DNA from: a virus
Lineage: Duplodnaviria > Heunggongvirae > Uroviricota > Caudoviricetes
Length of the DNA stretch: 16,514 nt
IMG/VR virus record: IMGVR_UViG_2681813234_000010
Span: 1-16,514 of that record
Strand: one strand, 5' to 3'
Part shown: in pieces, positions 1 to 16,514 of the stretch
Position numbering within the stretch: the first letter of the stretch is position 1
How the letters are laid out: the number at the start of each line of letters is the position of its first letter
Made by a program: the position numbers and the translations under genes
Notes under the pieces: model-generated
What the model saw: only the letters and a program-made list of their open reading frames with translations
Databases searched by the model: none
What the model was told of the DNA's origin: nothing

Positions 1-1236
1 TTGGGTGAACATAAACGTTACAATGACGAGGTTATTCATAATGTCTATCCGAAAGTCATAGATGATGATTTGTTTCTCACAGCTAATCGCATGATGGATC
101 GTGTGATGTTGGAGAAGAATAAACCAGCAGAAGACCTGTTACTTGAATCTGATGTGGTGCAAGAGATCTTTCAGCTATATGAAAGTGGGCTTGGCTCAGG
201 TGCTATCGTTAAGCGTTTGCCGAAAGGGTGGAGTACTGTAAATGTACTAAGGGTTTTACGTGACAAAAATGTAGTAACGCAGAAGATTATCGATAACTTA
301 ACTTTTGAGCGTGTGAATCAAAAGTTGTCAATGAATGGTGTAGCCAATCGCATTCGGAAGGATATAACTATTGCACAAGATGATTACATAACTAACTTAT
401 TCCCGAAGATCCTTAAGTGCGGTTATTGTGGTGGTAATGTTGCGATTCACTATAATCATGTTAGAACGAAATATGTGATTTGTCGAAATCGAGAAGAAAG
501 GAAGATCTGTGATGCAAAATCCATACAGTATATTAGAATTGAAAAAAACATACTCAAATGCGTGAAGAATGTAGATTTTCAAAAATTAATGATAGAAAGT
601 ACTGGCAGTGAAACTTCAGTGCTGGATGGTCTGCATGAAGAGCTATCATCATTACGCAGAGAAGAAAATAGTTATAGCGATAAAATAAATGAAAGAAAAT
701 TAGCAGGTAAAAGAGTAGGTATACATCTCAATGATGGGTTAACGGAGGTGCAGGACAGGATTGAAGAAATAGAAAAAGAAATTATCAATGCTCAAACTGT
801 AAGAGAGATACCTAAATTTGATTTTGATATGGATGAAGTACTTGATCCAATGAACATAGAGCTACGAGCGAAAGTGCGAAAACAGCTTAGGTTAGTACTT
901 AAAGCAGTGAAATACTGGATGTTCGATAAGCGTATTTTTATCCAATTGGAATACTTCAATGATGTACTTTCACACATGCTTGTAATTGATAATAAACGTG
1001 GCGGTGGAGATGTAATATATGAAATGTCTATTGAAGAAAGAAAGGGTGAACGAATCTATACAGTTCATGAAAATGGTCATGCAGTTTTCATTGCATCAGT
1101 AACTATCGGCACAGATATATGGTCATTAGCTTTAAGCCGCACACGTACAATTGATACCATTGGCAATTACCTAAGCCTCCTTGCTCGTGAAGGTTTTGAG
1201 ATCTTTGTGAACGAAGATCAAATTGATTGGTTTTAG
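1..1236 (+). CDS. int: Large serine recombinase (phage integrase), C-terminal ~410 codons; the 5' end lies upstream of the window
   Basis: Frame is open from base 1 to TAG at 1234-1236. The translation shows the tail of a recombinase domain, then a four-Cys zinc-ribbon (KCGYCGG ... CRNREERKICD) and a long charged, coiled-coil-like segment. That order is typical of large serine integrases. The catalytic resolvase domain is not in the window. Confidence 0.75.
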   Translation: MGEHKRYNDEVIHNVYPKVIDDDLFLTANRMMDRVMLEKNKPAEDLLLESDVVQEIFQLYESGLGSGAIVKRLPKGWSTVNVLRVLRDKNVVTQKIIDNLTFERVNQKLSMNGVANRIRKDITIAQDDYITNLFPKILKCGYCGGNVAIHYNHVRTKYVICRNREERKICDAKSIQYIRIEKNILKCVKNVDFQKLMIESTGSETSVLDGLHEELSSLRREENSYSDKINERKLAGKRVGIHLNDGLTEVQDRIEEIEKEIINAQTVREIPKFDFDMDEVLDPMNIELRAKVRKQLRLVLKAVKYWMFDKRIFIQLEYFNDVLSHMLVIDNKRGGGDVIYEMSIEERKGERIYTVHENGHAVFIASVTIGTDIWSLALSRTRTIDTIGNYLSLLAREGFEIFVNEDQIDWF

Positions 1237-1316
1237 TATTGTGAGAGTACCTTACTTTCAATAAGTATGAAAATTCTTTGGAGAACGTAGTTTTTACGTT
1301 TTAAACTTTATTTTCA

Positions 1317-1347
1317 CCTCGCAGGAGCGATTCTGCGAGGTTTTTCC
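1317..1347 (+). terminator. Rho-independent terminator downstream of the integrase gene
   Basis: Perfect 8-bp stem CCTCGCAG (1317-1324) / CTGCGAGG (1333-1340) with an 8-nt loop, immediately followed by TTTTT (1341-1345). Confidence 0.6.
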
Positions 1348-1465
1348 ATGTATGGTAATGCAATGAGGTGAGGCGTGGCTTGGGGGGGCGTATAGAGCGT
1401 TACAGGAAGGATTTGCGTTAAGTGTTAGTTTGATGTGCATATCTGAGTATATTTTCCTATTATCT

Positions 1466-1494
1466 TTGACCAGTCCTCGGGAATAATATATAAT
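1466..1494 (+). promoter_or_regulatory. Sigma70-like promoter (TTGACC, 17-bp spacer, TATAAT)
   Basis: -35 TTGACC at 1466-1471 and a consensus -10 TATAAT at 1489-1494 with a 17-bp spacer, about 90 bp upstream of the ORF starting at 1584. Confidence 0.5.
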
Positions 1495-1583
1495 GGCTTC
1501 ACGCCCTTAATAAAGGCTAGGCAGACAAAAGAGATATATAAATCTTTTCGCTACTGCCGATATCAAGTAGGAGCAAATCCAAA

Positions 1584-1940
1584 ATGACACTCAAACATAA
1601 TGAAACACATATTTATTATTCCAATGATTGTGCCGTAGAACAACAAGATAAAGAAATCTGGATCGACCAGAATTTAGTATATAGCTGCTGTAAAGGCGAT
1701 GAAGTAGAGTATACAGAAGGTAATAAGTCGGACTCTCCATTCTATGGTCAAGAGGCTTTACAAACTATGTATTATACTGACCGTGGAAATGTTCAGTATA
1801 ATAATGAAGATGGGAGTTTTTACTTTCGCCTTGATGATGGGAATATGAATACATACATAGATGGACAACTCCAGATTGATGATCCTAACGGTGACTATGT
1901 AGAATTCATTGAGTTCGCAAATAGTGTAATGTCTAAGTAA
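1584..1940 (+). CDS. Hypothetical small, strongly acidic protein (118 aa)
   Basis: ATG at 1584 preceded by AGGAG (1567-1571); ends at TAA 1938-1940. By manual count about 23 Asp/Glu versus 7 Lys/Arg. No recognisable family motif. Confidence 0.55.
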   Translation: MTLKHNETHIYYSNDCAVEQQDKEIWIDQNLVYSCCKGDEVEYTEGNKSDSPFYGQEALQTMYYTDRGNVQYNNEDGSFYFRLDDGNMNTYIDGQLQIDDPNGDYVEFIEFANSVMSK

Positions 1941-1953
1941 GAAAATTTATAAA

Positions 1954-1971
1954 CGAAGGTGCTAACCTTCG
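1954..1971 (+). terminator. Weak hairpin after the 1584-1940 ORF (possible terminator)
   Basis: 7-bp stem CGAAGGT (1954-1960) / ACCTTCG (1965-1971) with a 4-nt loop. No U-tract follows, so terminator function is doubtful. Confidence 0.25.
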
Positions 1972-2040
1972 ACGGTCATCATATATGACCGATTTTAAGT
2001 GAGATACCATAAATACTCCTATAACAGATAGGAGATATTT

Positions 2041-2214
2041 ATGAATTGGATATACAAAATAATCTTTGAAATCATTGCTACGGCAATCTATATGTTCGTA
2101 CTATTTCCATGTTGGATAGTACTGTGCATCTTTTTTATGTTATTAACAGTATTAGCACTACCTTTGAAAATTCCAACCATAAATAAAATGGTTATCAGGT
2201 TTTTGGAACGATAA
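2041..2214 (+). CDS. Small hydrophobic membrane protein (57 aa); not in the supplied ORF track
   Basis: ATG at 2041 preceded by AGGAG (2030-2034) with a 6-nt spacer; TAA at 2212-2214. The translation MNWIYKIIFEIIATAIYMFVLFPCWIVLCIFFMLLTVLALPLKIPTINKMVIRFLER is almost entirely hydrophobic, consistent with 1-2 transmembrane helices. Confidence 0.4.
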   Translation: MNWIYKIIFEIIATAIYMFVLFPCWIVLCIFFMLLTVLALPLKIPTINKMVIRFLER

Positions 2215-2232
2215 AAAATAACATGGTATAAT
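2203..2232 (+). promoter_or_regulatory. Putative extended -10 promoter upstream of the small ribbon-helix-helix-like ORF
   Basis: TG at 2224-2225 followed by TATAAT at 2227-2232; weak -35-like TTGGAA at 2203-2208. Confidence 0.3.
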
Positions 2233-2352
2233 CCATATTATGGTGATCACTACCTCAACGTGATAATTATAATTCCACATCAAAAAGTAATCCCCAACAT
2301 GGGGATCTTTTTGCGTTGAGAAAAAATGGAAAATGTTAAACAAAGGAATGTT

Positions 2353-2505
2353 ATGAAAGAAAAGAAAACTATTAGTGTTGGGGTGAGATTAAGTCCTACA
2401 CAAGAAGAAATACTAAAATCACTTATAGTGTGTGGTAAGGCTACAACGATGAGTTCAGCCATTCAGTATCTGATACAGCAATATGGGATTTTAGATAGTA
2501 AGTAA
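2353..2505 (+). CDS. Small ribbon-helix-helix (CopG/Arc-like) DNA-binding protein (50 aa); not in the supplied ORF track
   Basis: ATG at 2353 with AGGA 5 nt upstream; TAA at 2503-2505. The translation MKEKKTISVGVRLSPTQEEILKSLIVCGKATTMSSAIQYLIQQYGILDSK fits the ribbon-helix-helix pattern: an N-terminal beta-strand (ISVGVRLS) followed by two short helices. Confidence 0.45.
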   Translation: MKEKKTISVGVRLSPTQEEILKSLIVCGKATTMSSAIQYLIQQYGILDSK

Positions 2506-2512
2506 GGGTTTG

Positions 2513-2560
2513 GTACTTTCACTTTAGAAAGGTACTAACAGTACTTCAGGATGAAGTACT
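2513..2560 (+). repeat. Cluster of four GTACT motifs plus a duplicated AGGATGAA just upstream of the HNH/AP2 gene
   Basis: GTACT at 2513, 2532, 2541 and 2556; AGGATGAA occurs twice (about 2549 and 2570). Likely a regulatory binding array or leader. Confidence 0.3.
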
Positions 2561-2578
2561 TAGTTTCAAGGATGAAAT

Positions 2579-3079
2579 ATGAAAAAGGAAAAAAGAAATG
2601 ACCTAAAGGGTCAGGAATTACCACATGTAAAAGAAGCACTACGAGTATGGAATAACTTTCACTCAAGAGTGCGTAATAACATCAATTATAGTACTGTTAC
2701 CATCTGCGATGACTGGTATCGGTTTAGTAATTTTTATTATTGGTATGTTGAAAATGTTGTTGATGGTTGGCATTTAGATAAAGACATATTAGGAGGTAAT
2801 GAGTACAGCCCAAGTAACTGCATCTTTGTACCGAGAGAAGTAAATCAATTGTTCCGTAAAGCACCAACGTCATTATCAACCGGTGTTGTCGTTAATCATA
2901 AGGGCTATCAAGCACAAGCAACATTTGATAAGAAAGTACATAAGTTTGGGACATACCCAACGATAGAAGAAGCTCATGCTGCTTATGTTATTGGGCGTAA
3001 ATCATATATCTATAAACTATCGCAGAAGTATAAAGCATATCCAAAACTTAGTGCGGTACTATTACAAAAATCAAAATAA
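2579..3079 (+). CDS. HNH-type endonuclease-like protein with a C-terminal AP2-like DNA-binding domain
   Basis: ATG at 2579 with AAGGA 6 nt upstream. Residues WHLDKDILGGNEYSPSNCIFVPREVN match an HNH_3-style H...N...N motif. The downstream GYQAQATFDKKVHKFGTYPTIEEAHAAY resembles an AP2 domain, a pairing common in phage homing-endonuclease-like proteins. Confidence 0.55.
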   Translation: MKKEKRNDLKGQELPHVKEALRVWNNFHSRVRNNINYSTVTICDDWYRFSNFYYWYVENVVDGWHLDKDILGGNEYSPSNCIFVPREVNQLFRKAPTSLSTGVVVNHKGYQAQATFDKKVHKFGTYPTIEEAHAAYVIGRKSYIYKLSQKYKAYPKLSAVLLQKSK

Positions 3080-3144
3080 CGAAATGGCCTGAGTACTGGA
3101 AATACTACAGGTCAATATTAACATCTATCATATGGGTATTTATT

Positions 3145-3669
3145 ATGACAAAAAAGAAAGAGCCGCATGAAATAAAGAAACGTGGACGAAAACCAAAAGA
3201 ACACGATAATGCAGAATTACAAGATCATTTAAGGGGAGTACGCCATCTTAATCAACTTACAGATGAAGTACGTAGAGTAATATCAAACTCTGTTAAAAGT
3301 TACTTTGAAAAGAACAATAAACGTAAGACTTTCTCAAACAAGAATATGCTACTTCTGGTTACATCGACTCGATACATCACAGATGAAGCGATAAAGAACA
3401 ATATCGAGTACTTTGATGCCTTCACACTCAATGAGTACGGCGATTCCTCAGTACGAGATTATAAGATGGTCACGATTGCTATATGTGAGGGTCTGAATGC
3501 AATTCTAAGTAGTGGTAAGCCAGTAAGAAGTGATACACCAGAGGGATCACAGTACTTAACTGGTGAAGAAGCATATCAACTACGTATGGCTTTAGATGGT
3601 GGCTGTACTAAGGCAGACCTACTAAAGGTTATAGCTACAATTTATCCCGAATTAAGACATTCTAAGTAG
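3145..3669 (+). CDS. Hypothetical protein with a basic AT-hook-like N-terminus; possible DNA-binding regulator
   Basis: ORF of 174 aa. The N-terminus has KKRGRKPKE (AT-hook-like). The C-terminal LTGEEAYQLRMALDGGCTKADLLKVIATIY loosely resembles a helix-turn-helix of the sigma region-4 type. Function not established. Confidence 0.5.
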   Translation: MTKKKEPHEIKKRGRKPKEHDNAELQDHLRGVRHLNQLTDEVRRVISNSVKSYFEKNNKRKTFSNKNMLLLVTSTRYITDEAIKNNIEYFDAFTLNEYGDSSVRDYKMVTIAICEGLNAILSSGKPVRSDTPEGSQYLTGEEAYQLRMALDGGCTKADLLKVIATIYPELRHSK

Positions 3670-4122
3670 TGTTTTAATAACGGTTCAAATGTCGTAATTA
3701 AGGTTAAATGGGGTTTTTATGGGGTTGATTAGTGCTGCTTGCACTAGATATAGTATCTAAAATGAGTTAAAAAACACTGTATATGGGTTGTCCCGAATTT
3801 CGACACCATAATTAGAAATTATTAAGACCTCTTGTACTACGTCCAAATCGGTCTTTGAGTGCCTACACTCCCTGCGGTCGTATAGTCACTGAAAAACAAA
3901 TTAAACCGATCCTTGCGTTTTTTCTCGCTAGTACTCGAAAAACACGCAGGGGATTTACTCGCTTTCGCTCAGACAGGTAACAGTACTGACTAAACTATTG
4001 GGGTCGGCCTATGGCCTAAAGTTCGCTTCGCTCTTTTTGAAGTATCTACGCGGGCTAAGCCCTTGTTGGGGTTATCGGGCTGTTTAAGCCCTTACTGAAG
4101 TCATCAAATTATCTAACGACAC

Positions 4123-4246
4123 GAAGCAGTACTATCAATTGATTACTTCAAATGAGTTACTAAGTGAGCAGTCGTCTCACTTGCAATACTTATGATCTAT
4201 ATAAATGAAATCTGCAAGTGAGACTCCGGAGAAGTAGTACTATCAA
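4123..4246. repeat. Two 16-bp direct repeats (15/16 identical) bracketing a palindromic site
   Basis: GAAGCAGTACTATCAA at 4123-4138 and GAAGTAGTACTATCAA at 4231-4246. An extra AAGTGAG half-site copy sits at 4162-4168. Confidence 0.6.
4174..4224. repeat. 51-bp site: perfect 12-bp inverted repeat with a 27-bp AT-rich spacer (candidate attP, origin or operator)
   Basis: GTCTCACTTGCA (4174-4185) and its exact reverse complement TGCAAGTGAGAC (4213-4224). The spacer ATACTTATGATCTATATAAATGAAATC contains a GATC and a TATA-like run. Confidence 0.6.
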
Positions 4247-4403
4247 GTCACATATATTTGAGTACTGAATGATTTAGTTAGTCACAGTTGAAATAATTAA
4301 TATATAAAGGTCTACTTATAAATTCTACCGTGACAACCATCTACTATTTCAATCCAGGCCATTATGACTGGGTTTACGGGAAGCGTGAATAAAACTGTCT
4401 CAG

Positions 4404-5138
4404 TCAACTCAATAAAATTTCCATACTTGTGGGTGAAAACATACGATAGCTGATAATGTCACCTACATTGAAATTTGTTTGGAAAAAACTTCTAAGATCT
4501 GTTCCTCCCATGATTCTAGGTACTTTATTAGTGTTTGCCGTTCTGTTAATGATTGCAGTGAGGCTTGTATTGGTGCTGGAGTTAGTTATTTTTATTCTTG
4601 CACCATCTTCTCCAAACTCATGACTGGCAGCCACGGTAACGTTGAAAAATCCTCTTTGCCAATATGTATTAGCCATTCTGAAATTGTAAGTCGGGCTTGA
4701 TTTCTCTGAAGTGACAATTTCTATGTAATCTGTCGTGATTATCTTTTCCTGATAACCATTCCACTCAGGCTGTAGTACTCTAATTATGTCATCTTCTAAT
4801 GCAGCAGCTAGGTTTAAGTGAAATTGACCATAGTGCATTAATCCATTATCGGGTAAAACAAAAATGTCTACCGCTTCATTGTTTTTTAGATGCCTAATAA
4901 TATTCGCGTTGTTTTTTATATTTGTTGATTGAGTAGGGCCTGGCATAGAATAATGATACATTCTACGTTTAAGTAAACGAGTAGTTTTGCCTACATATTT
5001 TACCTGACCATCACAAATGAACGCATAAAGATTATTTTTGACATCTGAGTGAGAAGGTTCAAGTGTAAATTGTAGTTTTTCGCCATTGAGTTCCCAAAAG
5101 CCAATTTTAATAAATCCAATTTCAAGTAATCTATTCAT
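4404..5138 (-). CDS. GIY-YIG nuclease-domain protein with an unrecognised ~110-aa C-terminal domain
   Basis: ORF of 244 aa. Residues LYAFICDGQVKYVGKTTRLLKRRMYHY match the GIY...YIG core with the conserved Arg. Downstream, AAALEDDIIRVLQPEWN matches the conserved Glu and Asn region (compare UvrC ALLLEHNYIKLYQPRYN). The start ATG overlaps the stop of the upstream gene (ATGAATAG on the minus strand). Confidence 0.65.
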   Translation of the reverse strand: MNRLLEIGFIKIGFWELNGEKLQFTLEPSHSDVKNNLYAFICDGQVKYVGKTTRLLKRRMYHYSMPGPTQSTNIKNNANIIRHLKNNEAVDIFVLPDNGLMHYGQFHLNLAAALEDDIIRVLQPEWNGYQEKIITTDYIEIVTSEKSSPTYNFRMANTYWQRGFFNVTVAASHEFGEDGARIKITNSSTNTSLTAIINRTANTNKVPRIMGGTDLRSFFQTNFNVGDIISYRMFSPTSMEILLS

Positions 5139-5877
5139 GTATGACCTTCTTTCGAACTATGAATTTGTCAGTGGGGTAATTATTTGAATAGGTAGAAATA
5201 ATAAACGCTGAAACTTTCCGGTGTGTCTCTGTAACCTGATTCTTAAACTCTAAAAATTCAGCAATAGTTAAATCTTTTGCCTGTCGGTCTGCGTGTATCA
5301 GTGAGTCAACTTCAAAATATGAAGAAAGAAATAAGTTGTATATATTCCCATATTCCCGATTAGTGTCCTTAAGGATATTAATGATAGAGCAACTATAGTT
5401 ACTTAATTCAAAACCATTTCTTGGTATTGTATTTAAACTGTTAATTACTGAATAGGAGAGGTTAGCGAACTCATCCATTAAATTATCTAACTTGTGAACC
5501 TCATTTCTTAGTGATTCGTTGATGGCACAATTGTTATTTAATACGCTGATCGATTGTTTGCCCACTGACCAATATAAATTTCTCAAATGGTGGCTGGCAG
5601 AATTAACTTTTGTTAAATTAGTATAAATCGATTCTTCGATAACATTATGAACCACATCATATTGCTTTTGTGCTAACCATTCAGGTGCTTTTTTATACGC
5701 AGCAATCGCTATACCTAAAGTACCAATTGTAGCTAATGAACTCAACCAATCACTTACGCTTCCCCATTCAAAGCCATTAGAATCAGAAAATAGTACTTTA
5801 ATTAAAGCTAATATCGCTACCCATAGAAGTACTATGACGGTAGCAACTAATAATTTGTTCCATCCTTCAACTTTCAC
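5131..5877 (-). CDS. Membrane protein with two N-terminal transmembrane helices and a ~180-aa soluble domain
   Basis: ORF of 248 aa with a probable GTG start at 5877. Hydrophobic segments LLVATVIVLLWVAILALIKVLF and WLSSLATIGTLGIAIAAY. Its stop overlaps the start of the GIY-YIG gene by 8 nt, implying an operon. Confidence 0.55.
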   Translation of the reverse strand: MKVEGWNKLLVATVIVLLWVAILALIKVLFSDSNGFEWGSVSDWLSSLATIGTLGIAIAAYKKAPEWLAQKQYDVVHNVIEESIYTNLTKVNSASHHLRNLYWSVGKQSISVLNNNCAINESLRNEVHKLDNLMDEFANLSYSVINSLNTIPRNGFELSNYSCSIINILKDTNREYGNIYNLFLSSYFEVDSLIHADRQAKDLTIAEFLEFKNQVTETHRKVSAFIISTYSNNYPTDKFIVRKKVIHE

Positions 5878-6049
5878 TTTCTTAACCCGTAGAATGGTTC
5901 ATGGATGAAAAATTTTACCATTTGCAGTTATGTTTCGTAAATGATCATCGTAGAGTGAAAATTTAACTTAAGTGGAAGTTGCAACTCCATTTGGTGGAGT
6001 TGTACTGGTTGAGATCACGATTTCTTTGAAAAAAACGGGGCTGGTTGCT

Positions 6050-6076
6050 TTGAACTGGTTAACATAGTGGGATAAT
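6050..6076 (+). promoter_or_regulatory. Putative promoter for the HNH / PD-(D/E)xK cassette
   Basis: TTGAAC at 6050-6055, then TG (6068-6069) followed by GATAAT at 6071-6076 (extended -10-like). AGGAG at 6100-6104 precedes the ATG at 6110. Confidence 0.3.
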
Positions 6077-6109
6077 AAGCACCGAAGAAGAACTTCAGCA
6101 GGAGCAGGT

Positions 6110-6838
6110 ATGAACAGAAAGCAATTCATCCAGTCACACGGAGCTACTTGCAGTAACTGGACGTGGAGTTGGTCATTTGTTAACCATGAAAAGAAGATGG
6201 TCATCTTTGGGTCATGGGATGTTGAGAGTGAACAAGAGCGGTCTGTAATACTCCGGGAGAAATGGGAATACAACTCAAACAACAAAAAACAACCGGGATA
6301 CACCCAGGCACTGGAACACATCCGTTTAGCCCATGAAGGCTACGAACTTTACACCTTCAATATGGTTTTCGCAGAACACCCTGAGAATCCTGAAATTGCA
6401 GTAATCAAGGATTTTGAGCGTAAATTAAACAAGCGATATCTTCGTAAAGAAGGTGTTGTTTGGTATGCAGACTTCTTACCTAATCCATTCCCTGATGAAA
6501 TTCCTTCAGGAGAGAGTTTTGTTGAAGGTGCAAAGACTCAAGTAACAGTGAACTACTACGAACGCGATCCAAAGGCCCGACAAGCCTGCATCCAGCATCA
6601 CGGTACTACCTGTAAATGCTGTGGCTTCGATTTTGAGAAGGTCTATGGTACACATGGCCGTGGGTTCATTCATGTACATCACATCAAGCCGCTTCATACG
6701 ATTGGGGAAAACTATGTGGTCAATCCCGTAACAGATATGATCCCATTATGTCCAAACTGCCATGCAATGGTACATCACGGAAGCGAAGTACTTACAATTG
6801 CAGATTTGAAAAAGAAAATGACATTCTGGAGCGAGTAA
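6110..6838 (+). CDS. Zn-finger HNH endonuclease (McrA-like HNH) with an unrecognised ~150-aa N-terminal domain
   Basis: ORF of 242 aa with a good ribosome-binding site. The C-terminus CKCCGFDFEKVYGTHGRGFIHVHHIKPL...DMIPLCPNCHAMVHH is a classic HNH motif with CxxC...CxxCH zinc ligands, as in McrA-type enzymes. The N-terminal domain has no motif I can assign. Confidence 0.7.
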   Translation: MNRKQFIQSHGATCSNWTWSWSFVNHEKKMVIFGSWDVESEQERSVILREKWEYNSNNKKQPGYTQALEHIRLAHEGYELYTFNMVFAEHPENPEIAVIKDFERKLNKRYLRKEGVVWYADFLPNPFPDEIPSGESFVEGAKTQVTVNYYERDPKARQACIQHHGTTCKCCGFDFEKVYGTHGRGFIHVHHIKPLHTIGENYVVNPVTDMIPLCPNCHAMVHHGSEVLTIADLKKKMTFWSE

Positions 6839-7630
6839 ATGGATTTATCACAATTGAGCAACGTCGAATTGATGCAACTGAATCAGTTGACGCTTGATGA
6901 GTTAGAACGACGAGAGGTTATCAGAACCAGAAACAATCCTATCAGTGAGTACACTGAATGGCTGGTTGCGGATAAGATGCAGATGGTACTGGCTGCACCT
7001 AGTACTAAAGGGTATGACGCTACAACAACTGATGATCGAAAAATTCAGATTAAGTCTCGTAAGAATAATTTAAAAAACCAATCATTAATTCTTGGAATTA
7101 TCAGAAATTATGATCTGAACCAATTCGATGAACTCATTGCCGTAATATATAACCATGATTTCTCAATTCGTTATGCCATATCCATACCACATGAATTAGT
7201 GAAGGAATATGGTTTTTATAATGAGCATCAGAATGGGTACACTTTAAGAATAAGCAATTTATTACTTAATGATCCACGTGTAACAGATATCATTGAATTT
7301 ATTGACCCAGACACTGAACGTTCAAAGGAAGATATCACGGTGAAGCCAGATTCAAACACTATCCGGGATGTACAGACAATAGGAATGCAGACGTTTGTTG
7401 AGTACTATCAGTATGTTGAAAGTGGTATGAACACAACTGATCTTGTTGAAAAGATGGTAACTGACCATCCAGAATGGAAGGAAAGTACTGCAAGAACAAA
7501 GGCATCTTCAATGCGAAGAGTATTTAAGAATTGCGACAACGTTGAAGCACTAAAAATCATCTATAAGTCGGATCACCCAGCAATAACGGATGAGATTAAG
7601 AGTAAACTTATGACGCTTTGGGATAAATGA
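6839..7630 (+). CDS. Hypothetical protein with a PD-(D/E)xK-like (Hjc/restriction-endonuclease-fold) motif
   Basis: ATG at 6839 directly abuts the TAA of the HNH gene (TAAATG). EWLVADKMQMVLAAPSTKGYDATTTDDRKIQIKSRK fits an E ... D ... (E/Q)xK nuclease-core pattern. The fold assignment is tentative. Confidence 0.5.
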   Translation: MDLSQLSNVELMQLNQLTLDELERREVIRTRNNPISEYTEWLVADKMQMVLAAPSTKGYDATTTDDRKIQIKSRKNNLKNQSLILGIIRNYDLNQFDELIAVIYNHDFSIRYAISIPHELVKEYGFYNEHQNGYTLRISNLLLNDPRVTDIIEFIDPDTERSKEDITVKPDSNTIRDVQTIGMQTFVEYYQYVESGMNTTDLVEKMVTDHPEWKESTARTKASSMRRVFKNCDNVEALKIIYKSDHPAITDEIKSKLMTLWDK

Positions 7631-7729
7631 ACAAAGTTTTGGTTATATTTTTGACGCAAAAAGATATAATTGTAGTACTTCCACCTTTCGCATTTGGGTA
7701 GGTTTGTTTGGGCGATTGGTGGAAGTGTA

Positions 7730-8041
7730 TCAAAACGGTAATTCTCCCTGCTCACAAAACCATCCATCTTCATCATGCTGCTTATAGACAGAATTCTCAG
7801 TACTCAGATAATGCAAACCTTCCAGTACTGAACTTAGCGGCGTTTCCAGTATGAACACGAAGCAATCACGCTCAATCGTGCCTAACCAGTATGTACCTTG
7901 CTGGTTCTGGAAGAAAACGCGATCCCCATATGAAAACTCATCAAGACTGTATCCCCAATAGCAGACCTTAGCCCATTGGCCTAAATGCTCAAACTGCTGC
8001 ACCCCGCGTTTGATTGCCAGATCAAAACCGTTCTTGCCCAT
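7730..8041 (-). CDS. Hypothetical protein (103 aa) in a GC-richer island
   Basis: ORF with ATG at 8041. Its composition matches the surrounding GC-rich segment rather than the AT-rich backbone. No family motif recognised. Confidence 0.4.
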   Translation of the reverse strand: MGKNGFDLAIKRGVQQFEHLGQWAKVCYWGYSLDEFSYGDRVFFQNQQGTYWLGTIERDCFVFILETPLSSVLEGLHYLSTENSVYKQHDEDGWFCEQGELPF

Positions 8042-8146
8042 ACTATGCCTCTACATTAATACTGGTTATTCATACAGTATTGCATCACATTTCGCACAGA
8101 TCCAGCCATGAAAATACTTACCACTAAAAACGGTAGAAATGTAATT

Positions 8147-8216
8147 ATCGATCATTTTAATTTGATCAATGGTTAAAAATGATCAATTATCAATCAGTTA
8201 TGACAACTGAGAGATC
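8147..8216. promoter_or_regulatory. GATC-rich divergent intergenic region with a repeated TGATCAAT motif
   Basis: Four GATC sites in about 67 bp (8150, 8164, 8181, 8213). TGATCAAT occurs twice (8163-8170 and 8180-8187). The region lies between the divergently oriented 7730-8041 ORF and the EAL-like ORF. Confidence 0.4.
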
Positions 8217-8219
8217 AAC

Positions 8220-8729
8220 ATGAAACTCGAACATTGGGCAATTCCGATCACTTCATTGGACGGTATGTTACTCGGCGTAGAGCTGTAAACCCGTGTACTG
8301 ATAAACGGTTGCCAGGTACTGATGGGGGCAGGAAAAGAAAGTGAATATATCCGTCACGTGGTCTATCAGAACCAGTTAAGAATGATTCAGGGTAAAGCCG
8401 CATGGTTCAAAGAAAAGGGGCTGTTGTGCGTGCTCAGTACTGGCACAGGTACACGCTATGAAGATCTACCATTCATACGGTACATGGCTGCTGAACCACT
8501 GCTAACGAACGGTTACGACTTAGTTCGACTAAATAGACGGTTCACTGAAGAACACATAGAGCGGCTGATCTTCCCGGTACTCATCAATAACATCATGCAG
8601 TACTGCGACAAGGTGATCGTACAAGTCAGCAGCAATCGAAATCACAGGATTTTACGAGAGTCGGGGGTATGGGCAGTACAGGGAGAGTACAGGCCAATCC
8701 GCTTTGAACAATGCGAACAACTTCTATAG
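8220..8729 (+). pseudogene. EAL-like (possibly YdiV-type degenerate EAL) ORF interrupted by a single in-frame TAA
   Basis: ATG at 8220 opens MKLEHWAIPITSLDGMLLGVEL, then TAA at 8286-8288, and the same frame continues open to 8729 (170 codons in total). The N-terminal xPIxxxxGxxxGVEL and C-terminal WAVQGEY patterns resemble EAL-domain ends. The family assignment is tentative. Confidence 0.35.
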
Positions 8730-8739
8730 GGATATAACA

Positions 8740-9012
8740 ATGAAAATACTAATCGTCATGTTGGTAGTACTGCTCACAGGCTGCGGCAGCGTACATCACT
8801 CATTCATGGATAAAGCCTTTGTCGGCAACGTTGATAACAAGGCTACAATAGTACTGTTCGACGCTGGCACACGAAACGGGGTGAAGTACTACCGGCCTCA
8901 GTTCCAGAGTGATTGTGGCCGCACCTACAATCCGATTTACCAGGTGGACAATGGCAGTACTACATGCCATATACGAGAGGAAAGAATTAAAAAAATGCAT
9001 CAATATAGATAA
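8740..9012 (+). CDS. Small lipoprotein (90 aa)
   Basis: ATG at 8740 with AGGGA 8 nt upstream. The N-terminus MKILIVMLVVLLTGCGS has a hydrophobic signal peptide and the lipobox L-T-G-C. It starts 11 nt after the EAL-like ORF stop. Confidence 0.55.
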   Translation: MKILIVMLVVLLTGCGSVHHSFMDKAFVGNVDNKATIVLFDAGTRNGVKYYRPQFQSDCGRTYNPIYQVDNGSTTCHIREERIKKMHQYR

Positions 9013-9092
9013 TAAACAAAAATCAAAGAGATAGAATTATTAAATTATTAAGTGTATGTGGCATGATGAAAAATTAAATAATATATAATACC

Positions 9093-9122
9093 CTCATGCT
9101 GTTATTGATAAAACAGCATGAG
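9093..9122. terminator. Bidirectional hairpin terminator between convergent genes
   Basis: Perfect 11-bp stem CTCATGCTGTT (9093-9103) / AACAGCATGAG (9112-9122) with an 8-nt loop and A/T-rich flanks on both sides. It sits between the lipoprotein gene (+) and the DUF3800 gene (-). Confidence 0.55.
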
Positions 9123-9132
9123 AATATATATT

Positions 9133-10287
9133 TCAACGTAGCATGGCTAATGTTCTGGAAATTCTTATTATATCCTTCTCAATATCATCTAAAACAGGAG
9201 TTGAGTTTCTGCTTCGCTCTGCAATTTCTTGCAAAATATATCTATTTAAATGGTTGTTAACATTTTTAGGGTCAAGGTTTTCTGGTGTGGGAACAACACA
9301 GCACTGCCAATAAAAAATCTCATCTTCAAAATGATTTAGCCATTTAGAATGATATTTTTCTTTCGATTTTTTCTTGTTAAGGACATAAATGCTAGCCGCA
9401 GCTACCACATCCGCAATTTGTATACCATGCGTGACTTTAGAATCAGAAAGAATCATTGGCTCAGATAGCTTAAATGTGATCGGGATTTTTTTATCATGAA
9501 AAGTCTCGAACACAATCTCATCATTGCCTATCATCTCATTGAATGAGTCCTGATGAGTAATTAATGGTTTTGAGCTGTCGCATATAGCTCTCAATGTACC
9601 AAACTTACTACTCATATCGCACAGGAGATTATAAAGAGAAGTCGTTGTCAAATCTAATAACCACTTATCAATCCCAGTACCCTCAAGGCCTTCATATTCT
9701 TCTTCAATTATAGAGATGTTATTCTTGGCGAAATCATGAATGTCCATCATAATTTCAGAATTTTTAGAACCAACAACTGGTTCGATAAAACTATTAACCA
9801 ATATTTTACCTCGTGAAAAATCTTCAAATCGCGAATGTAATAGTTCTGAATATTCATCCTTAGCTATTAAAGAAAAATACATTATATTTGAGATGAATAG
9901 GTGAAATTTAAGGTTGTAAAAAATTGAGCTTTTAGCTGCTAATACTGGCTCAAAAATATATTCGAAGAATTTTCCTGAGAGGGCATATTTTTTTTCGTTT
10001 ACAACCACACGCATACGACCACGGAAATGATTAAGTATTTCATCTACGGCTGGTTGAAATCTCTTGCTATTTACGAGAGTGCTACCTTTTAGCTCTTCGG
10101 CTGCGATCGAGTACTTGTTTATTATATAATCAACAAACTGTTTACTTTCCTCATCATCAGTCACGACTGCTGCGTAACTAAAAAAAGGCTGATCTTTTGA
10201 AAGTAAGTTATTACCAGTGAATCCTGATTCATCGAAATATACATTCTTTACCAATTTGGTCATTCCTTTATGAGCTACAATGTGCAT
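9133..10287 (-). CDS. DUF3800-family protein
   Basis: The N-terminal VYFDESGFTG and C-terminal GIQIADVVAAA match the two conserved DUF3800 signature motifs. The start is uncertain: ATG at 10287, ATG at 10263 or TTG at 10254. None has an ideal ribosome-binding site. Confidence 0.6.
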   Translation of the reverse strand: MHIVAHKGMTKLVKNVYFDESGFTGNNLLSKDQPFFSYAAVVTDDEESKQFVDYIINKYSIAAEELKGSTLVNSKRFQPAVDEILNHFRGRMRVVVNEKKYALSGKFFEYIFEPVLAAKSSIFYNLKFHLFISNIMYFSLIAKDEYSELLHSRFEDFSRGKILVNSFIEPVVGSKNSEIMMDIHDFAKNNISIIEEEYEGLEGTGIDKWLLDLTTTSLYNLLCDMSSKFGTLRAICDSSKPLITHQDSFNEMIGNDEIVFETFHDKKIPITFKLSEPMILSDSKVTHGIQIADVVAAASIYVLNKKKSKEKYHSKWLNHFEDEIFYWQCCVVPTPENLDPKNVNNHLNRYILQEIAERSRNSTPVLDDIEKDIIRISRTLAMLR

Positions 10288-10466
10288 GTGCTATTAATAT
10301 AACATTGTAATAATGCTAATGTAAAATAGAATGTAAGTATTTTTAAGCAAGCTAATTAAGTTAAATTACTAATTAAGGTACTCCGGCAGCCCAGCTTAGA
10401 ACGCGAGTTTTCGGCACCGGATTCTTTAAGTTATGTGTGAAGTTTAGATAGCTTCCCGCACCGCAC

Positions 10467-11030
10467 TTAGCAAAGTACAACACCTATTTCATTTAACGCA
10501 CAATCGCAATGACGGTTTGTCGGACATTCGCATAATTTGAATACTGCATAAGATCCTTTAAGGGTATCGGTTACATACTTGTCCATTTCTTCAACTACAG
10601 ATGATGAGCAATATAAATGAAAACCAACACAGAAAGAATTTCGCATCGGATACTTACATTCTTGTATAGAGTTGAGTTTCAAATGGTCTGCTTGCAATCC
10701 TCTTTTTAAGGCAGATGAACGCTTAGTACATTTCAGCTCAATAAAGATATAGTCTTCAAAAAGGGTATCTTTTTCTCTCATTATTATATCGATTTTTGAG
10801 AGCTTGCTTGCAGGGAAATTATTAGGGTCAAGAAAAGCTGTAACTTCACGTTTAACTTCATATTTTCTTTTTTTGTTAAGGAAGTGCTCAAATTCAATTT
10901 GTAGCCATTTTTCCCAATCATTAGTTTCATTACTGACGAAGGAATACAGACGCCTCTTTATATCTTCATTCTTTAGGAAGCTATTCAGTAACTTTACCAG
11001 TAAAGAAAAATCATTGTTGCGGTCTGACAT
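10467..11030 (-). CDS. Hypothetical Cys-rich protein with a possible PD-(D/E)xK-like core
   Basis: ORF of 187 aa. KIDIIMREKDTLFEDYIFIELKCTK fits a D ... ExK pattern. The C-terminus contains a Cys/His cluster (CVGFHLYC ... CEC ... HCDC), suggesting metal binding. Confidence 0.5.
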   Translation of the reverse strand: MSDRNNDFSLLVKLLNSFLKNEDIKRRLYSFVSNETNDWEKWLQIEFEHFLNKKRKYEVKREVTAFLDPNNFPASKLSKIDIIMREKDTLFEDYIFIELKCTKRSSALKRGLQADHLKLNSIQECKYPMRNSFCVGFHLYCSSSVVEEMDKYVTDTLKGSYAVFKLCECPTNRHCDCALNEIGVVLC

Positions 11031-11044
11031 AGTGATCTCAATAA

Positions 11045-13412
<2,368 letters not shown>

Positions 13413-13415
13413 TAA

Positions 13416-16514
<3,099 letters not shown>

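Follow-up and report, generated by a model that had tools for sequence, protein, structure and literature searches.

A conserved GGA-loop hairpin in the leader of a prophage AP2-domain gene, a possible CsrA operator

The DNA analyzed here, positions 1 to 16,514 of the IMG/VR record IMGVR_UViG_2681813234_000010 (referred to as the window, meaning this whole stretch), is a 16.5-kb piece of a Caudoviricetes element with a G+C content of 37%, which proved to belong to a prophage of Escherichia coli. In its early region, the leader between a small gene for a possible ribbon-helix-helix (RHH) protein and the gene for a 166-amino-acid (aa) AP2-domain protein contains four copies of GTACT, which raises the question of what reads these motifs, and whether it reads them on DNA or on RNA. 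A first-pass annotation had described them as an array, possibly a binding site for the AP2 domain or for the RHH protein. Judging from the comparison of homologous leaders, the conserved feature is not the GTACT array; it is a hairpin with GGA in its loop together with the ribosome-binding site, a combination that resembles known targets of the translational regulator CsrA.

Leader hairpins and their conservation

The four GTACT copies lie on the plus strand at 2513-2517, 2532-2536, 2541-2545, and 2556-2560, and the proximal two are full AGTACT hexamers, at 2540 and 2555. Their positions had been given correctly in the annotation, as had the duplication of AGGATGAA (2548-2555 and 2569-2576; four copies in the window against 0.7 expected), and the motifs are indeed made of the same hexamer that is in excess over the whole window. 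Compared with the expectation from base composition, GTACT occurs 165 times instead of 30.8 and AGTACT 55 times instead of 4.9. Four sites in 43 bp form the tightest GTACT cluster of the window; however, tested against the window's own density with uniform placement, the cluster does not reach significance, whether sites on either strand are counted (110 sites, P = 0.26) or those on the plus strand (81 sites, P = 0.09). As the window is saturated with the motif, the array is not special by density alone. Nor are the motifs arranged as direct repeats; instead, they make up the arms of a pair of inverted repeats. Segment 2540-2548 (AGTACTTCA) recurs in inverted orientation at 2552-2560 (TGAAGTACT), perfectly over 9 bp and with 3 nt, GGA, in between, and the copies at 2513 and 2532 pair together in a second stem. 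Any two copies of GTAC can pair, because the tetramer is self-complementary. Of the duplicated 8-mer, the first copy corresponds to the loop and 3' arm of the proximal hairpin and the second to the ribosome-binding site that serves the ATG at 2579. Relatives do not conserve this exact 8-mer.

Folding of the leader gave a minimum free energy of -20.9 kcal/mol (z = -2.5) and three hairpins, which are listed here with the gene that they precede.

2510-2538, plus strand: hairpin 1, UUGGUACUUUC-ACUUUA-GAAAgGUACUAA, with the distal GTACT copies (2513 and 2532) in its stem (minimum free energy fold)
2540-2560, plus strand: hairpin 2, AGUACUUCA-GGA-UGAAGUACU, a perfect 9-bp stem made from the proximal AGTACT sites (inverted repeat and fold)
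2563-2578, plus strand: hairpin 3, GUUUCA-AGGA-UGAAAU, a 6-bp stem whose loop presents the Shine-Dalgarno sequence (fold and scan for GGA-loop hairpins)
2579-3079, plus strand: AP2-domain gene, 166 aa, with an N-terminal domain (residues 1-95) and a C-terminal AP2-type domain (approximately residues 101-150, nt 2879-3028) (open reading frame [ORF] list)

The loop GGA of hairpin 2 (2549-2551) lies inside CAGGAUG, which is the A/CA(N)GGA(N)G-like context, in a hairpin loop, of CsrA-type leaders. A second GGA (2570-2572) is found 21 nt past the first and 6 nt before the ATG, within CAAGGAUG at 2567-2574, in the place of the second site of such leaders (21 to 25 nt in the relatives). The same segment is the sole match to CANGGANG in any intergenic leader of the early region. 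A scan of the window found no general enrichment of GGA-loop hairpins, and hairpin 2 was not called as an intrinsic terminator. An upstream ORF starting at the ATG of CAGGATG was rejected, as relatives have CAGGAAG or CAGGACG and this ATG is not conserved. No Rfam family reached its gathering score anywhere in the window; sub-threshold matches in the region 2200-3200 include CsrB at 2543-2578 (11.3 bits, E = 1.2, not significant).

For comparison, we took the leaders upstream of homologous genes (35 to 95% aa identity; individual loci carry L numbers below) in 24 distinct lineages, which come from E. coli, Klebsiella, Raoultella, Dryocola, and metagenomes. All 24 fold into a hairpin at the position of hairpin 2, with at least eight different stem sequences, among them the unrelated stems AGUACUUCA, GUACUGGCA, AGUACUGAC, GGUGAGA, GUGAAAC, CCGCC-GAA, and GCGGcUACA. 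The stems are 7 to 10 bp long and the loops 3 nt in many lineages and 5 to 8 nt in others. The loop GGA is retained in 23 of the 24, in the contexts CAGGAUG, CAGGAAG, CAGGACG, CAAGGAA, CACGGAU, or AAAGGAU, so what is constant in the loop is CA(N)GGA, followed only by U, A, or C. The second GGA is present in the Shine-Dalgarno sequence of every lineage, at a GGA-to-GGA distance of 21 to 25 nt throughout, and the start codon always lies 18 to 25 nt downstream of hairpin 2. Elsewhere in these loci, an upstream GGA-loop hairpin was found for only 4 of approximately 138 other ORFs with a GGA in their Shine-Dalgarno sequence. In other phage types, a search with a covariance model (R1) revealed no leader of this kind before distant AP2 homologs.

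The GTACT motifs themselves follow a different pattern. Already in close relatives, the distal pair changes from GTAC/GTAC to ATAC/GTAT (L012 and L045, gATACT...AGTATt) or to GATG/CATC (L014), and the stem of hairpin 1 is maintained through these compensatory changes; its loop, CACUUUAG, is also conserved. The proximal AGTACT pair is kept down to 48% identity while the inner stem covaries, with TTCA/TGAA replaced by TGAC/GTCA, TACA/TGT-A, or TGGCA/TGCC-A. In L046 (81% identity) and in the group at 35 to 42% identity (L094-L103), hairpin 2 persists without any GTACT, with stems GCGGcTACA/TGTACCGC, GGTGAGA/TTTCACC, GTGAAAC/GTTTCAC, and CCGCC-GAA/TTCGGCGG. One lineage has AGTACT/AGTGCT, that is, a U.G wobble, several stems are bulged, and the center-to-center spacing of the two AGTACT sites in hairpin 2 varies between 15 and 20 bp among lineages.

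The covariation was quantified on MAFFT alignments that were not fitted to the structure, and it supports the stems of both hairpins. In alignment A2, 86% of the cells are paired versus 78% in shuffles, with a covariation score of 0.237 versus 0.124, a value that none of 500 shuffles reached; for hairpin 1, 81.8% of the cells of this alignment are paired, and three pairs have changed on both sides. In alignment A6, 74.7% of the cells of hairpin 2 are paired versus 58.5% in shuffles, with 36 double-sided changes versus 15.9 (again 0 of 500 shuffles). Slid controls on A6 gave 33 to 48% paired cells, and a model-fitted alignment agrees with A6. Variable stem sequences, loop lengths, bulges, and G.U pairs around a retained loop GGA point to an RNA element rather than to a dimeric DNA operator.

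CsrA as a candidate reader of the leader

Two features upstream of the leader are needed to place it in a transcript.

2203-2232, upstream of the RHH-like gene: promoter-like site, TTGGAA and TATAAT separated by 18 nt, with an upstream TG
2353-2505, plus strand: small gene coding for the possible RHH protein, 50 aa from the ATG at 2353, with a possible start at 2326 that would give 59 aa (ORF list)

The scan found no promoter-like site in the leader between the RHH-like and AP2 genes, and the two genes are probably cotranscribed. Within 60 nt after the site at 2203-2232, and before the RHH-like gene, there is also a terminator-like hairpin, ATCCCCAACATGGGGAT, followed by a T-run; the promoter and hairpin (2203-2312) could correspond to an attenuator or to a small RNA.

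From the G.U pairs, the one-sided bulges, the variable loop length, and the fixed distance to the start codon, we infer that the active form of the leader is RNA, with CsrA as the putative reader of its GGA sites. The Enterobacteriaceae host species carry CsrA. The hairpin loops of the CsrB RNA repeat the sequence CAGGA(U/A/C)G, and SELEX, in which ligands evolve systematically through exponential enrichment, gave the consensus RUACARGGAUGU with GGA in a loop (PMC7652899). A single CsrA dimer can bridge two sites that are 10 to 63 nt apart, with an optimum of at least approximately 18 nt, and the glgC leader has one CsrA site in a hairpin and one over the Shine-Dalgarno sequence (PMC7652899). 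In the cel gene of ColE7, an intercistronic stem-loop with a loop GGA and the ACAAGGAGU at the Shine-Dalgarno sequence have been shown experimentally to bind CsrA and to repress translation (PMC2896534). The loop contexts of our leaders match both the CsrB repeat and the SELEX consensus, and the spacing of 21 to 25 nt falls within the 10- to 63-nt range.

The leader may thus be a dual-site translational operator for CsrA, made of two GGA sites, one in hairpin 2 and one in the Shine-Dalgarno sequence, a proposal to which we give slightly less than an even chance. The four GTACT copies would then be the paired arms of two stem-loops in an intercistronic mRNA leader, with hairpin 2 as the selected element and its tip displaying GGA within CAGGAUG. 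A host CsrA dimer would bridge this GGA and the Shine-Dalgarno GGA 21 nt downstream, occluding the ribosome-binding site and repressing translation of the AP2 gene, and titration of CsrA by CsrB and CsrC would release it, so that an early prophage gene would follow the Csr state of the host. In this lineage, the stems would simply have been built of AGTACT, the palindromic hexamer enriched across the element, which can pair with any second copy. If this is correct, a prophage family of E. coli and Klebsiella ties an early regulatory gene to the carbon and stationary-phase switch of its host, and a CsrA leader adds a posttranscriptional input to prophage decisions.

Several observations weigh against the CsrA proposal. 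The stems are long (7 to 10 bp) and many lineages have 3-nt GGA loops, so that the top pairs would have to open; SELEX ligands mostly have stems of at most 4 bp and 6-nt loops, and very stable stems have been suggested to disfavor CsrA binding (PMC7652899). A Shine-Dalgarno sequence contains GGA anyway, which leaves only the upstream site as informative, and in L013, the single natural variant, the loop is GGG. Rfam searches of relatives did not yield the CsrB match again. The conservation of AGTACT at the base of the stem exceeds what pairing would demand, the hexamer being kept at 48 to 57% aa identity despite a changed inner stem, and a constraint at the DNA level may act on it as well. Because the leaders are related to one another, they are less independent than the shuffle controls suppose, and CsrA itself is suggested by a sequence pattern.

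The same RNA structure could operate without CsrA, by stabilizing or processing the mRNA, as a partial attenuator between the RHH-like and AP2 genes, as a ribosome standby or decoy site through its Shine-Dalgarno-like GGA loop, or as the target of an RNA-binding protein encoded by the element. We regard this as being on the unlikely side; it draws on the same covariation and conservation, and two details would fit it, namely, the U-rich run that follows hairpin 2 in some lineages (UUAUUUU in L013 and L041) and the conserved loop of hairpin 1, which CsrA does not explain. Nevertheless, most lineages have no U-run (L094-L103, L042, and L046), so termination is not the conserved function, and the hairpin of the window had failed the terminator scan. 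A purely structural role would also leave unexplained why CA(N)GGA stays in the loop despite a full turnover of the stem, why the spacing remains at 21 to 25 nt, and why only U, A, or C follows GGA. Hairpins acting as single-stranded or extruded DNA, for example, as a signal for replication, recombination, or packaging, are by our estimate the least probable explanation of all. GGA is a GNA-type triloop, of the kind known from very stable DNA minihairpins, and several lineages do combine a perfect palindromic stem with the 3-nt GGA loop. However, the G.U pairs (G.T in DNA) of hairpin 1, L089, and L094 would be weak in DNA and mismatched on the opposite strand, loops of 5 to 8 nt that still contain GGA are not GNA triloops, and a start codon always follows 18 to 25 nt downstream.

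An operator in double-stranded DNA, read by the AP2 protein (as autoregulation) or by the RHH protein, is how the annotation had understood the motifs, and we find it improbable. The protein does have a genuine AP2 DNA-binding domain, AGTACT is enriched and preferentially retained across the element and so is probably read by something on DNA, and the hexamer is kept at the ends of hairpin 2 in lineages where the inner stem has changed (the window, L014, L050, and L047). The comparison goes against it all the same. The annotation itself had named the absence of the array upstream of homologous genes as a reason to abandon the idea, and the four-site array is missing in many homologs, while the stem-loop persists: the distal sites are lost in close relatives, mutating pairwise and in a compensatory manner, and the hairpins of L094-L103 and L046 have no GTACT at all. 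An AGTACT spacing that ranges from 15 to 20 bp among lineages, one-sided bulges, and the AGTACT/AGTGCT wobble cannot be reconciled with a fixed dimeric operator, no AGTACT is present in the promoter-like region ahead of the RHH gene, and the cluster is no denser than the background of the window allows. This last point would suit a still less probable explanation, in which the leader has no dedicated function and its hairpins are a by-product of the element-wide AGTACT enrichment, with one site per 150 bp and chance close pairs forming stems. The scan statistic (P = 0.09 to 0.26) is compatible with this, other close AGTACT pairs exist (11712/11726, 7799/7824, and 4236/4261), and close pairs are not overrepresented. 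But it fails to account for a stem that reaches 9 bp, for the persistence of a GGA-loop hairpin at the same position with other stem sequences, or for the constant spacing to the Shine-Dalgarno sequence, so the comparative data are strongly contrary to it.

The AP2-type protein, its element, and the AGTACT excess

The product of 2579-3079 had been described as an HNH/AP2 protein typical of homing-endonuclease-like genes. The AP2 half of this description holds. No NCBIfam or Pfam model matches the window protein, and a weak Pfam AP2 match appears in only 4 of 19 family members (the window protein, which has none, and 18 homologs; best E = 0.003, below the gathering threshold). A profile of the family, however, finds AP2/ERF domains in PDB, namely, WRI1 (E = 2.3e-6), TEM1 (3.3e-3), ERF096 (7.5e-3), and also AtERF1. 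The AlphaFold2 model (predicted local distance difference test score [pLDDT] of 92) has three strands and a helix in this region (E103-106, E109-116, E119-126, and H129-150), and its top Foldseek matches in PDB are the AP2 domains of TEM1 and WRI1 (probability, 0.75 to 1.0), with no meaningful match other than AP2 domains. With both the fold and the sequence similarity to AP2/ERF domains in place, the protein is a divergent member of the AP2 family (PF00847).

The HNH half does not hold. Its sole source is phrog_953, a PHROG family labeled "HNH endonuclease" (E = 1.5e-38). The window protein matches no HNH family of Pfam even at an E of up to 10, none of the 19 family members does so at an E of up to 1, the family profile finds no HNH entry in PDB at an E of up to 10, and no nuclease is among the structural matches of the model in PDB. 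Where the catalytic DH.D is expected, D67-K68-D69 (nt 2777-2785), with lysine, is invariant in 21 homologs, and N89 is conserved. Profile, catalytic histidine, and structural similarity therefore all fail to place the protein in PF01844 or HNH_3 (PF13392). An HNH-derived origin of the N-terminal domain is nevertheless plausible from the spacing pattern of HNH_3 that this half keeps (hLDKDi...YSPxNCiFVPxxxN) and from a short beta-beta-alpha unit in the model (E65-67, E82-84, and H86-89). A homing endonuclease gene was rejected, as there is no sporadic presence and absence; the order recombinase, small genes, RHH-like gene, AP2 gene, 155-174-aa gene is found in every family member examined (35 to 95% identity), which makes this a syntenic core gene. 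Taken together, profiles and model suggest that the protein is most likely an AP2-type DNA-binding regulator joined to a nuclease-dead, HNH-like remnant. The label is widespread, with 873 phage records containing relatives by tblastn, all below 60% identity, and the inspected examples annotated as "HNH endonuclease"; for this family it is probably an overannotation. The closest homolog in a cultured phage, at 35% identity, is that of Vibrio phage D506 (OZ195882.1, 50150-50701), with IDKD, a weak AP2 match, and the same annotation. The window family lacks the catalytic histidine and would be better called AP2-domain DNA-binding proteins, which corrects this annotation.

The upstream protein, to which public contigs give a length of 50 or 59 aa, has no sequence match in Pfam, PHROG, NCBIfam, or PDB. 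Its single-sequence AlphaFold2 model (pLDDT of 80) has helices at 15-26 and 33-44 after an extended N terminus, and the Foldseek list is mostly composed of RHH proteins (ParD, MazE-mt1, PutA, and NikR) at nonsignificant E values of approximately 1 to 10. The RHH assignment of the annotation is thus weakly compatible with the predicted fold.

Further features frame the gene pair and the element.

1-1236: large serine recombinase gene, inside which the window opens
3085-3114, no strand assigned: hairpin after the AP2 gene, GGCCUGAGUA-CUGGAAA-UACUaCAGGUC, 11 bp, 8 nt past the stop codon, with an AGTACT at 3092
27640-28350 of L040 (E. coli AREA_C483), at the right end of the element: 236-aa DNA methyltransferase (phrog_3820; motifs ELCAGIGRLS and GNPPFG)

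The stems of the hairpin at 3085-3114 differ yet pair in L043, L045, L046, L047, L049, L050, and L051 (fold and comparison). In the relatives, it has 11 to 13 bp, compensatory stem changes, and a GGA in several loops; on the minus strand, it is followed by a T-run, and relatives give weak minus-strand Rfam matches at the same place. It may end the unit or terminate leftward transcription. Another perfect inverted repeat, of 9 bp with 6 nt between its arms (GAAGTACTA / TAGTACTTC), lies just inside the large terminase gene, at 11709-11733, and has the same GAAGTACT half-site as hairpin 2 in everted order.

The recombinase is followed by small early genes, variable cargo, the terminase small and large subunits, and a portal gene. 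An identical 166-aa product is present in 14 public contigs, in two of which the element adjoins yeaJ-cdgI-yeaH-yeaG, and E. coli AREA_C483 has a degraded copy between yeaG and mipA; the host is E. coli. Relatives occupy other attachment sites in Raoultella, Klebsiella, and Dryocola, all hosts being Enterobacteriaceae, and the family comprises prophages of approximately 30 to 36 kb and 37% G+C that carry the serine recombinase at their left end and an NPPF DNA methyltransferase at their right. A megablast search of deposited phage genomes with the window gave zero matches, and with tblastn, the large terminase subunit (TerL) and the AP2 protein reached at most 35% identity to any cultured phage. 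The element is thus a member of a prophage family to which no deposited phage genome is closely related. Species-representative genomes yielded no relative in a protein-pattern scan, and a scan of metagenomes found two loci only. Part of the cargo is shared with other islands. The gene pair 6110-6838 and 6839-7630 matches PADLOC models of methyl-directed restriction (mREase_IV, E = 4e-8; mREase_II, E = 1.3e-62) and has an 83.7% identical copy in other E. coli islands, as defense cargo within the prophage. The segment 9133-11030, with a DUF3800 gene and an adjoining 187-aa gene, is sparse in AGTACT (1 in 1.9 kb), and another E. coli prophage (L166) has a copy of the DUF3800 region (window positions 8869-10449) at 87.6% identity, in agreement with a recent exchange of this cargo.

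The AGTACT excess is a trait of the whole family and a more unusual feature of the window than the leader, to which it is tied because the leader stems of this lineage are made of the favored hexamer. It begins exactly at the element boundary, and a cause in host composition was rejected, as the E. coli flanks have 0 to 1 site in 6.7 kb. Sites occur at equal density in all three frames and in noncoding DNA; a codon-usage artifact was rejected on these grounds and by a shuffle of synonymous codons (42 observed versus 9.8 +/- 2.7). No extended motif was found around AGTACT, the flanks holding little information (a slight preference for C at -1 and G at +6), and its count follows from that of the enriched 5-mers GTACT and AGTAC. 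All 28 loci with a methyltransferase at least 69% identical to the one at the right end of the family (L053-L076, L078, L079, L082, and L083) are 3- to 11-fold enriched, and three loci with distant homologs are not. In the same alignments, 68 of 102 AGTACT sites are retained versus 43 to 44% for other hexamers, and we conclude that the hexamer appears to be under selection in the family. The density in late genes varies by lineage, TerL having 10 sites in the window and L046 and 1 to 3 in L045, L043, and L047. Two unrelated E. coli islands (L165 and L166) are likewise rich in AGTACT.

The methyltransferase, a conserved right-end gene product of the family, has NPPF and GxG motifs. Searches for clues to its specificity returned no relative in Pfam, NCBIfam, or PDB, just phrog_3820 and these motifs. 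Both the methyltransferase and the AP2 protein are candidate readers of AGTACT, the former also being a candidate writer. A broader proposal, which we consider unlikely, is that AGTACT is a selected DNA-level signature of this uncultured Enterobacteriaceae prophage family, read by the AP2 protein or by the NPPF methyltransferase, that would in addition provide the stem of an RNA element controlling the synthesis of its own reader.

Comparison with known systems

Overrepresented short motifs are known from other replicons, such as HIP1 (GCGATCGC) of cyanobacteria, DNA uptake sequences, and Chi. AGTACT resembles them in being a short palindrome, enriched 3- to 11-fold across a replicon family in all frames and in noncoding DNA, beyond codon usage, and preferentially retained. 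It differs in that the excess is limited to one prophage family and some E. coli islands, with none in the flanking chromosome, and in that the methyltransferase and the AP2 protein are candidate readers only.

In 2004, Magnani et al. reportedly proposed bacterial and phage HNH-AP2 homing endonucleases as ancestors of the plant AP2/ERF proteins. The window family shares with the phage HNH-AP2 proteins (phrog_953) the two-domain layout, a C-terminal AP2 domain of three strands and a helix, and the N-terminal HNH_3 spacing pattern. In contrast to them, it has lysine in place of the catalytic histidine and no HNH match in Pfam or PDB, and it is encoded by a syntenic core gene.

As for the leader, its loop has exactly the sequence of the CsrB repeat, CAGGAUG, and its architecture is that of ColE7 cel and glgC, with a loop GGA in a stem-loop, a second GGA over the Shine-Dalgarno sequence, and a spacing within 10 to 63 nt; with ColE7 it also shares its occurrence in a mobile element of Enterobacteriaceae. 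It departs from the SELEX ligands in having a stem of 7 to 10 bp and often a 3-nt loop, versus short stems and hexaloops, and from cel and glgC in that CsrA binding is here predicted from the sequence pattern. Last, the gene that would be regulated is neither a lysis gene, as in ColE7, nor a metabolic gene, as in glgC, but one coding for the AP2-domain protein of a prophage.

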